In this document: positions 41,214-41,603 of the stretch, piece by piece
Position numbering within the stretch: the first letter of the stretch is position 1
How the letters are laid out: each line of letters begins with the position of its first letter
Origin: a phage
Length of the DNA stretch: 45,917 bases
Assembly (NCBI GenBank): GCA_014750165.1
Contig: GCA_014750165.1_4319.1
Direction: 5' to 3' (one strand)
The notes under the pieces: model-generated
What the model was told of the DNA's origin: nothing
What the model saw: only the letters and a program-made list of their open reading frames with translations
The model's database searches: none
Made by a program: the position numbers and the translations under genes

Positions 41214-41603
41214 ATGACTACAATTTATTCAAAGGCATTATATCTTGGTAACATTGATAATGAAGACTGTGGATTCACAGTGGGTAAGAAATATAGGGTT
41301 AACCGTTTTGATACTGATGATGAAAACTATTTTTGGTGCGTAGATGATCATGATGGTTACCGTTACATAAAAAACGGAGAATTCCACAAGTTTGATATCC
41401 GCGAAGAGGGCGAGGGTTTCTTAACTGAAAGCGAATGCGCAGCCAAAGCCACTGACAATAATAAAAAACCATATCTAAGATATTACATAAACGGACATGA
41501 GGTTGACGTGATTGAGTTCGGAAATGTGGGTCGTACTGTATATGCGCTTGATCGGGATGGCGTAAAGTGCGACACAATCAAGTTCGAAGTAAAATTCGAG
41601 TAA
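41214..41603 (+). CDS. hypothetical protein (insert between terminase and portal)
   Basis: Start at internal Met MTTIYSKALYL after GAGAGGAGA; own cassette; followed by terminator. Confidence 0.4.
   Translation: MTTIYSKALYLGNIDNEDCGFTVGKKYRVNRFDTDDENYFWCVDDHDGYRYIKNGEFHKFDIREEGEGFLTESECAAKATDNNKKPYLRYYINGHEVDVIEFGNVGRTVYALDRDGVKCDTIKFEVKFE

Follow-up and report, generated by a model that had tools for sequence, protein, structure and literature searches.

A probable moron-like gene module between the terminase and portal genes of a phage genome

The subject of this report is an open reading frame (ORF) encoding 129 amino acids (aa) at positions 41214–41603 of a 45,917-nucleotide (nt) phage contig (GCA_014750165.1_4319.1 of assembly GCA_014750165.1; the whole of which we refer to as 'the window'), where it lies between the genes for the large terminase (TerL) and the portal protein. 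The gene order around it runs TerS, TerL, the 129-aa ORF, portal, a DUF2213 head protein, a cement protein and the major capsid protein (Table 1). The ~4 kb surrounding the ORF find their best nucleotide matches in BEK2/BEK3, Rtp and 2725-N35, with Rtp-like coliphages (Drexlerviridae, mostly Braunvirinae) being 81–90% identical to this region; judged by these matches, the phage is an Rtp/T1-like siphophage of the Drexlerviridae, a family of virulent phages. A first-pass annotation had picked out the ORF as separating TerL from portal, with a 'cassette' upstream and a terminator downstream, and all of these elements are indeed found in the sequence. As set out below, the ORF is a real gene whose coding sequence is conserved; an obligatory function in packaging or virion assembly can be excluded, and the ORF probably forms part of an optional, moron-like module whose product would serve as a dispensable host-interaction factor.

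With the portal protein as query we fetched 57 loci from IMG/VR, 55 of which hold both TerL and portal. In 44 of these 55, TerL stop and portal start are separated by 48–95 bp, bearing out the earlier statement that large terminase and portal genes are usually adjacent; the gap is 155–191 bp in two loci and 454–629 bp in the remaining nine. The nine long gaps are filled by a gene of the ORF's own family in five cases (one of them interrupted) and by an HNH homing endonuclease in four (L008, L017, L034 and L055). Among the 14 nearest loci (portal ≥74% identical) the slot is empty in seven and occupied in seven, and the gene is missing from nearly all of the more distant ones; the gene thus fails to recur here in every relative, a pattern that the first-pass annotation had named, together with stoichiometric presence in the virion, as evidence against a moron.

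The boundaries of the inserted segment are sharply defined by phage DTL (TerL protein 96% identical), which is without exactly positions 41144–41610 but retains the hairpin and the ribosome-binding site (RBS) of the portal gene, its junction reading ...AAATAG/CCGTGATAAACTAAGCCCC..., or at greater length AAATAG/CCGTGATAAACTAAGCCCCTATATGGGGCTTTTTTATTGGAGAAAAACATGG (the slash marking the joint). The slot is empty in the same way in L005, L009, L011, L012, L014–L016 and L068, as well as in AHP24, although this last phage is congeneric with JK06, a carrier of the gene. RobRod40 and AugustePiccard hold both types of insertion in the slot at once, in the order TerL, HNH gene, family gene, portal. Amongst annotated phage records, the family is found in 38 as against 148 that share the TerL–portal DNA. 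The synteny comparison for which the first-pass annotation had called thus reveals an optional gene, a clean indel in DTL, and HNH genes as alternative occupants of the slot. As a separate observation, the family gene of ACG-M12 (L069, 1390–1400) and of phiEB49 (L004) is split by a frameshift at a run of eight A residues, which may represent a real pseudogene, slippage, or a homopolymer error of (454) sequencing.

Downstream of the ORF lies a hairpin, AGCCCC-TACAT-GGGGCT, with an adjoining T-run; the hairpin itself (41625–41641) has a folding energy of −16.3 kcal/mol (z = −3.1). Because the same element separates TerL from portal in all close relatives, those with an empty slot included, it is not the ORF's own terminator, but pre-exists in the slot whether or not the gene is there. 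The claim that the gene carries signals of its own consequently applies to the Shine-Dalgarno sequence and, if it acts as a promoter, to the cassette repeat, both of which are real, but not to the terminator, which belongs to the slot. Relatives keep the ORF's Shine-Dalgarno as GAGAGGAG, and in the family alignment the position equivalent to 41214 is the start in most homologues; an in-frame ATG at 41172 was considered as start and rejected, being without a Shine-Dalgarno and lying inside the cassette, 5' of its −10-like hexamer. The ORF has a GC content of 38.5%, as compared with 46.0% for TerL and 47.4% for portal: a composition unlike that of its neighbours, as expected of a moron. The portal gene itself probably starts at ATG 41660 and not at TTG 41648, the start given by the mechanical ORF list, because a GGAG-N6-ATG arrangement is kept in all relatives. 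Rfam and tRNA scans placed no known RNA in the TerL–portal slot, their sole find being a tRNA-Arg at 38659–38736.

A further arrangement is seen in the empty slots of L018–L035 and similar distant Drexlerviridae, where the cassette box persists without the gene, as AAATAGCACGAATTGCTAAA right after the TerL stop. It is followed after 6–8 nt by TATAAT, and the terminator hairpin with its T-run comes immediately behind, ahead of the RBS and portal. Any transcript beginning just after the TATAAT would start inside the hairpin and would therefore escape the terminator; the junction as a whole looks like a combined terminator/promoter 'punctuation mark'.

The cassette upstream of the ORF belongs to a repeat with a constant layout: ATAGCAC-N3-TTGCTAAA, a variable spacer of 20 nt, TAnnnT, the leader CATCGAAACGA, a Shine-Dalgarno and an ATG, the last standing ~74 nt from the cassette start. 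The box starts at the stop codon of the preceding gene or immediately 3' of it, and the copy at 41140–41199 accordingly overlaps that of TerL. At ≤3 mismatches the pattern has 24 matches in the window, compared with 6.3 ± 2.5 in shuffles; some 20 of the copies are good ones, found on both strands, ahead of genes and with fixed geometry, and leader copies with 0 or 1 mismatch stand behind cassettes. The transcription units so headed include those for Erf, two helicases, PNK, an anti-repressor-like protein, two HNH endonucleases, a Cor-type lipoprotein and many small ORFs. Spacers often form a hairpin, which at times encloses the −10-like hexamer; the spacer hairpin of the ORF's cassette is kept as GCCAnGGATGGC in the copies that relatives carry at the TerL–portal slot, and the box precedes every allele of the gene in 12 relatives. 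From its repetition, geometry and position we infer that the cassette is a promoter. A description of it was not found in the literature.

At the level of protein sequence, the ORF product matches the phrog_14592 profile over its full length (E = 3.2e-30; residues 6–129 on profile positions 2–116 of 116) and is 54% identical to rtp22 of phage Rtp; other named members are JK_35P (JK06), bas01_0005, bas03_0004 and SU57_00023. Homologues of 118–145 aa fall into 46 clusters, with N-termini reading MARTSK or MKAVFKG. A profile search of 1.8 billion representatives returned 37 at E ≤0.001, several of which are spurious repeat proteins; the long multi-domain matches (P0060, P0067, P0069 etc.) were set aside as immunoglobulin (Ig), fibronectin type III (FN3) or other repeat proteins. 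The reading frame stays open in alleles from 99% down to ~27% identity.

Comparison of the ORF with its counterparts in Rtp, BEK2 and IME253 gives a non-synonymous divergence (dN) of 0.25–0.32 at a synonymous divergence (dS) of 0.57–0.81, hence a ratio (omega) of ~0.4. For TerL and portal, over the 300 codons next to the ORF, comparison with Rtp and BEK2 gives dN of ~0.01–0.02 at similar dS (omega 0.01–0.05), the TerL of IME253 being more divergent (dN 0.10, omega 0.09). The ORF protein is thus under selection, as follows from an omega of ~0.4 and a near-invariant C-terminal domain across ~60 intact alleles, yet is changing ~20-fold faster than its flanks.

The alleles are also exchanged and recombined. 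Phages whose TerL is 96–98% identical differ in what they carry: Rtp and BEK2 have an 'A-type' allele, SU57 a 'B-type' allele of ~30% identity, 2725-N35 a chimera of A-type N-domain and B-type C-domain, and DTL no gene at all; P0047 and P0048 are further domain chimeras, covering both directions. Nucleotide sequence is conserved in the upstream cassette and in the final 27 nt of the ORF, ATCAAGTTCGAAGTAAAATTCGAGTAA, even where two alleles share 30% protein identity. In two metagenomic contigs, a 99% identical allele lies within a 1.35-kb block (~40770–42120) that matches the window at 97–100% identity, the remainder of their TerL being only 53–80% identical; a near-identical block set in a divergent TerL points to exchange by homologous recombination in the flanks, the tract seen here spanning the 3' part of TerL to the 5' part of portal.

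Members of the family are not confined to one place in the genome. In addition to distant members at the TerL/portal junction (P0057, P0062, P0064), we find P0080 and P0055 between tail genes L and K, and P0071 between tail genes M and L. At the L/K site the family member is preceded by the same cassette (...AAATAGCACGAATTGCTAAAC...GGCGTATAGTTACCTCACACAAACGAGAGGAG...ATG) and followed by TAAACTAG-hairpin-TTTTTTATTGGAGG-ATG, just as after the ORF in the window. The window's own M/L junction is empty but has the hairpin/RBS element, and its own L/K junction holds a cassette-driven HNH gene. The elements of hairpin, T-run and ATTGGAGAAAA-ATG at 6615–6663 (M/L) and 41614–41662 (TerL/portal) are 84% identical over 49 nt; as the stretch from hairpin to start codon contains no promoter, expression of portal and tail L must depend on read-through. 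Further elements with hairpin and T-run are present at 45575–45610, 12744–12767 and 18615–18638, and a GTGATAAA-hairpin context also occurs 3' of the major capsid gene.

We modelled the protein with AlphaFold2 using the family alignment, giving two domains joined by a linker at a mean predicted local distance difference test score (pLDDT) of 78 and a predicted template-modelling score (pTM) of 0.50. Structural superposition with SH3 domains supports an SH3-like small barrel for the N-terminal domain; Foldseek returned only weak SH3 matches from the PDB, and a fold search of BFVD uncharacterised small phage barrels. In the model of the C-terminal domain the last strand, IKFEVKFE, is amphipathic. 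The family as a whole is acidic (median isoelectric point 4.8, net charge −9) and hydrophilic, without a membrane segment. Neither Pfam nor NCBIfam gave a match for the ORF product, sequence searches of the PDB returned noise only, and no HNH family matched in Pfam or PHROGs, unlike the slot occupants L008, L034 and L055.

A family hidden Markov model (HMM) run against 413 ORFs of the window picks out the 58-aa product of a second gene, rtp62 (29655–29831), at E = 1.4e-6, as a stand-alone version of the N-terminal domain. Its own AlphaFold2 model (pLDDT 92) contains five strands in the same order, and a profile–profile alignment (hhalign) of the N-domain with DUF7244 covers the whole domain at E = 6e-4, albeit with a probability of only 29%. 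The Pfam DUF7244 model gives no score for the whole protein or for residues 1–66, even at E ≤10. On the strength of the HMM match, the profile–profile alignment and the shared strand order, the N-domain is probably a divergent barrel of DUF7244 type; the motifs FTVg..Y and gY...DD are common to both and both genes are cassette-driven, the ORF product differing from the 57-aa rtp62-like proteins in its additional linker and C-terminal domain. A kinship with the ORF at 25661, to whose N-terminus (MATIY) the first-pass annotation had likened that of the present ORF (MTTIY), did not hold up: the likeness extends to five residues, BLASTP finds nothing at the N-terminus, the family HMM scores that ORF at E = 3.8, and it belongs to a different family, phrog_6031.

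Some other features of the window deserve mention. Behind the cassette at 2341, between the terminator of the tail tube gene and the tail assembly chaperone, is a hydrophobic ORF of 41 aa (2418–2543, + strand), which may be another small inserted gene. A cassette-driven lipoprotein (13733–13978, − strand; Pfam Phage_lipoprotein, PF24052) is probably a superinfection-exclusion protein of the Cor type. Two HNH homing endonuclease genes on the + strand, 7483–7968 and 28003–28485, stand behind the cassettes at 7413 and 27920 (71% identity over 100 nt); the former occupies the tail L/K junction, a slot taken by the rtp22 family in other phages. Two pairs of direct repeats, each 19.36 kb apart, lie at 15656–15761/35020–35125 (106 nt, 85% identical) and 15885–15945/35241–35301 (61 nt, 75% identical).

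Table 1. Features of the TerL–portal slot and related elements elsewhere in the window
Feature	Position	Strand	Remarks
TerS	39047-39553		PF16677
TerL, left border of slot	39572-41143	+	PF17289; phrog_38, E 8e-105
TerL stop TAG	41141-41143		inside first bases of cassette box
Inserted module (cassette, Shine-Dalgarno, ORF and 7 nt)	41144-41610	+	missing as a block in DTL and other empty-slot relatives
Cassette box ATAGCACGAATTGCTAAA	41140-41157	+	inverted repeat TAGCA-N5-TGCTA; ~20 copies in window
Small hairpin CGCCA-CGGA-TGGCG in cassette spacer	41164-41177	+	folding scan
−10-like hexamer TATAGT	41178-41183	+	exactly 20 nt 3' of box, as in other copies
Conserved leader CATCGAAACGA	41189-41199	+	23 matches vs 12.2 expected
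Shine-Dalgarno GAGGAG	41200-41205	+	8 nt 5' of ATG 41214
129-aa ORF, rtp22 / JK_35P / phrog_14592 family	41214-41603	+	ATG 41214, TAA 41601-41603
N-terminal five-stranded SH3-like barrel (predicted), residues 4-64	41223-41405	+	DUF7244-like
Variable linker with short helix (predicted), residues 65-87	41406-41474	+	pLDDT 52-68; indels, low conservation
C-terminal beta-beta-alpha-beta domain (predicted), residues 88-129	41475-41600	+	last strand IKFEVKFE; pLDDT 84-89; near-invariant columns
Hairpin AGCCCC-TACAT-GGGGCT and T-run, intrinsic-terminator-like	41625-41647	+	called as terminator by scan
Portal Shine-Dalgarno GGAG	41650-41653		
Portal, right border of slot	41660-42913	+	PF06381, E 1.7e-69
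Cement protein	44007-44528		PF22758
Stand-alone N-domain paralogue, 58 aa (= rtp62)	29655-29831	+	Pfam DUF7244 (PF23896), E 3e-29; cassette 29570
Cassette copies	2341, 7413, 17413, 21262, 22794, 25290, 25581, 27920, 28482, 29570, 36199, 36832, 37967, 41140	+	
Cassette copies	14062, 14809, 15567, 33040, 33655, 34767	−	

Drawing these observations together, the absence or replacement of the gene in close relatives, its presence at other junctions, the exchange of its alleles and its fast evolution are what exclude an obligatory part in packaging or virion assembly. The first-pass suggestion of a moron rather than a packaging component is supported by the DTL indel, the HNH alternatives, the other junctions, the low GC content and the rate of change. 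In the mechanism we propose, a module comprising cassette, Shine-Dalgarno and ORF would have been inserted between the TerL stop and the pre-existing hairpin/T-run. Transcription would begin a few bases after TATAGT, at ~41190, and would end at least partly at that hairpin, giving a short monocistronic mRNA regulated independently of the TerS–TerL message. The product is predicted to be a soluble, acidic, cytoplasmic protein in which a flexible linker joins a protein-binding SH3-like N-domain to a small alpha/beta C-domain; the variable N-domain may set specificity and the conserved C-domain may carry a common activity or act as an anchor. Its role would be that of a dispensable host-interaction factor, in counter-defence, in host takeover, or as the target or trigger of a host defence; a counter-defence or defence-target role is our best-supported guess.

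Several observations weigh against this interpretation. Searches of Pfam and NCBIfam gave no match to an anti-defence or defence family, and PADLOC returned nothing for four family members at E ≤1. The cassette at 41140 receives no call in a promoter scan, and the spacing from TTGCTA to TATAGT is 22 nt, which departs from the sigma-70 consensus; a gap of this length means that the cassette is no standard sigma-70 promoter, and suggests instead a site for a dimeric DNA-binding protein. Cassettes mostly precede DNA-metabolism and accessory genes, but the copy at 2341 stands before a block of tail-assembly genes; the cassette can therefore neither date expression nor mark a gene as non-structural, and we have dropped it as proof of early expression. 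Lastly, the family goes under the label 'virion structural protein' in RefSeq and PHROGs, with one record reading 'minor outer capsid protein'. Were the label correct, the protein could be a dispensable decoration of the head, portal or neck, its C-domain (IKFEVKFE) docking onto the particle and the variable SH3-like domain being exposed: a layout to which the pairing of conserved and variable domains is well suited, as is the gene's location within the head and packaging module. Optional decoration proteins exist in other phages, T4 Hoc and T5 pb10 among them. We nevertheless regard this explanation as unlikely. No experiment could be traced behind the label, which RefSeq also applies to a portal fragment of JK06, and the literature held nothing relevant under the gene names rtp22, JK_35P, bas01_0005 etc. 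Virion proteomics was not found for any carrier phage: the mass-spectrometry study of AHP24 deals with phages with an empty slot and is for that reason uninformative about the gene product, that of Rogue1 analysed three gel bands, that of MSK gives only sizes from sodium dodecyl sulphate–polyacrylamide gel electrophoresis (SDS-PAGE), and the ACG-M12 paper contains no proteomics. The gene's position, moreover, is not conserved among relatives that build the same virion, the occurrence of members at the M/L and L/K junctions speaks against a head role tied to position, the phage already has a cement protein, and there is no likeness to a known decoration fold. The propagated label should thus be corrected, as one without a traceable experimental basis.

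The traffic of homing endonucleases through the same slot raises another explanation, in which the gene would be a selfish passenger, spread by co-conversion during repair of HNH cuts and of little or no benefit to the phage. HNH genes as sole occupants of the slot or as neighbours of the family gene, the HNH genes that stand behind the same cassette in the window and the exchange in recombination tracts would all fit; against this, the slot of most carriers contains no HNH gene, and an ORF kept intact in ~60 alleles, with its omega of ~0.4 and nearly invariant C-domain, is under selection at the protein level. We consider pure passenger status decidedly improbable. A packaging or head-completion accessory acting with TerL or portal, as lambda gpW might suggest, draws on position alone, the gene sitting between the two on the same strand; its absence from half of the nearest relatives and almost all of the distant ones, the members at tail-gene junctions, the fast protein evolution, the want of a match to Pfam gpW or any other packaging family, and a predicted SH3-like barrel with beta-beta-alpha-beta domain in place of the helix-hairpin of gpW make this very hard to sustain. 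That the ORF is a chance opening in an intergenic spacer might be argued from its low GC content and from the lack of Pfam or NCBIfam matches, but its chances are negligible: the Shine-Dalgarno is strong, omega is ~0.4 and not ~1, the two-domain model is confident, and the idea is already refuted by a frame that is open in dozens of alleles at 30–99% identity.

If the optional, moron-like module that we favour is taken a step further, the rtp22 family might be a mobile modular effector, in which a cassette–ORF unit hops from one hairpin-punctuated junction of the late operon to another (TerL/portal, M/L and L/K), pairs a conserved C-domain with shuffled, hypervariable SH3-like domains that set specificity, and inhibits or triggers bacterial defence in the manner of such small non-essential proteins as Bas11 Gp54 or T7 Ocr. 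We put this forward tentatively, as a possibility that may well prove wrong in its entirety.

Amongst known systems, the lambda gene for gpW offers a parallel in position, also being a small gene between those for large terminase and portal. gpW is a small helix-hairpin protein required for head completion, encoded between A and B; it is essential and conserved in position, whereas the gene described here is optional, occurs at other positions too, and has no sequence match to it. The HNH insertions at the TerL/portal junction of Drexlerviridae resemble the ORF in their slot, in the upstream cassette (as seen in the window) and in being equally patchy in distribution, but the ORF product has another fold and neither an HNH motif nor a match to a nuclease family. 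The junction can accordingly be described as a gene-insertion hot spot common to the rtp22 family and homing endonucleases.

The morons of lambdoid phages, reportedly defined in 2000 by Juhala et al. and Hendrix et al. from the comparison of HK97 and HK022, share with the present module an extra gene between otherwise adjacent genes, promoter-like signals in front and a terminator after it, a deviant composition, and dispensability for virion assembly. They differ in that the phage here is virulent, so that prophage expression and lysogenic conversion do not arise; in that a repeated cassette native to the phage, and not a foreign sigma-70 promoter, provides the upstream signal; and in that the terminator belongs to the slot, not the insert. 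As genome anatomy, the locus is an ordinary example of phage mosaicism. In T4-type phages, PeSL (promoter-early stem-loop) cassettes are said, in work by Arbiol, Comeau, Krisch et al. from 2010, to flank small ORFs in plastic regions. The likeness lies in a repeated cassette of promoter-like sequence and hairpin that heads many small, variable ORFs and marks the borders of gene gain, loss and swap; in the present case, however, sequence and geometry are different, with a box formed by an inverted repeat, then a spacer of 20 nt, a −10-like hexamer and a conserved leader, the phages belong to another family, and the exchange tract seen runs from the 3' part of TerL to the 5' part of portal.

Being small, fast-evolving, domain-shuffled, dispensable and present in model phages (Rtp, BASEL phages Bas01 and Bas03, and JK06), which makes them easy to delete, members of the family are reasonable candidates for counter-defence and defence-trigger screens of T1-like phages. 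The closest solved phage structure to the ORF product, at the level of fold only and with no detectable similarity in sequence, is Gp54 of Bas11 (PDB: 9AXB), a BASEL coliphage related to SECphi27 (PMC11578894). Gp54 is a small, non-essential protein of unknown function that directly activates the defence protein CapRelSJ46; escape mutations right upstream of its gene lowered its expression, and the gene probably has its own promoter (PMC11578894). The two proteins are alike as small, non-essential barrels, and the gene described here may likewise have a promoter of its own, but they differ in that Gp54 consists of one six-stranded domain (66 aa), encoded elsewhere in the genome, whereas the product described here pairs a five-stranded barrel with a second domain.

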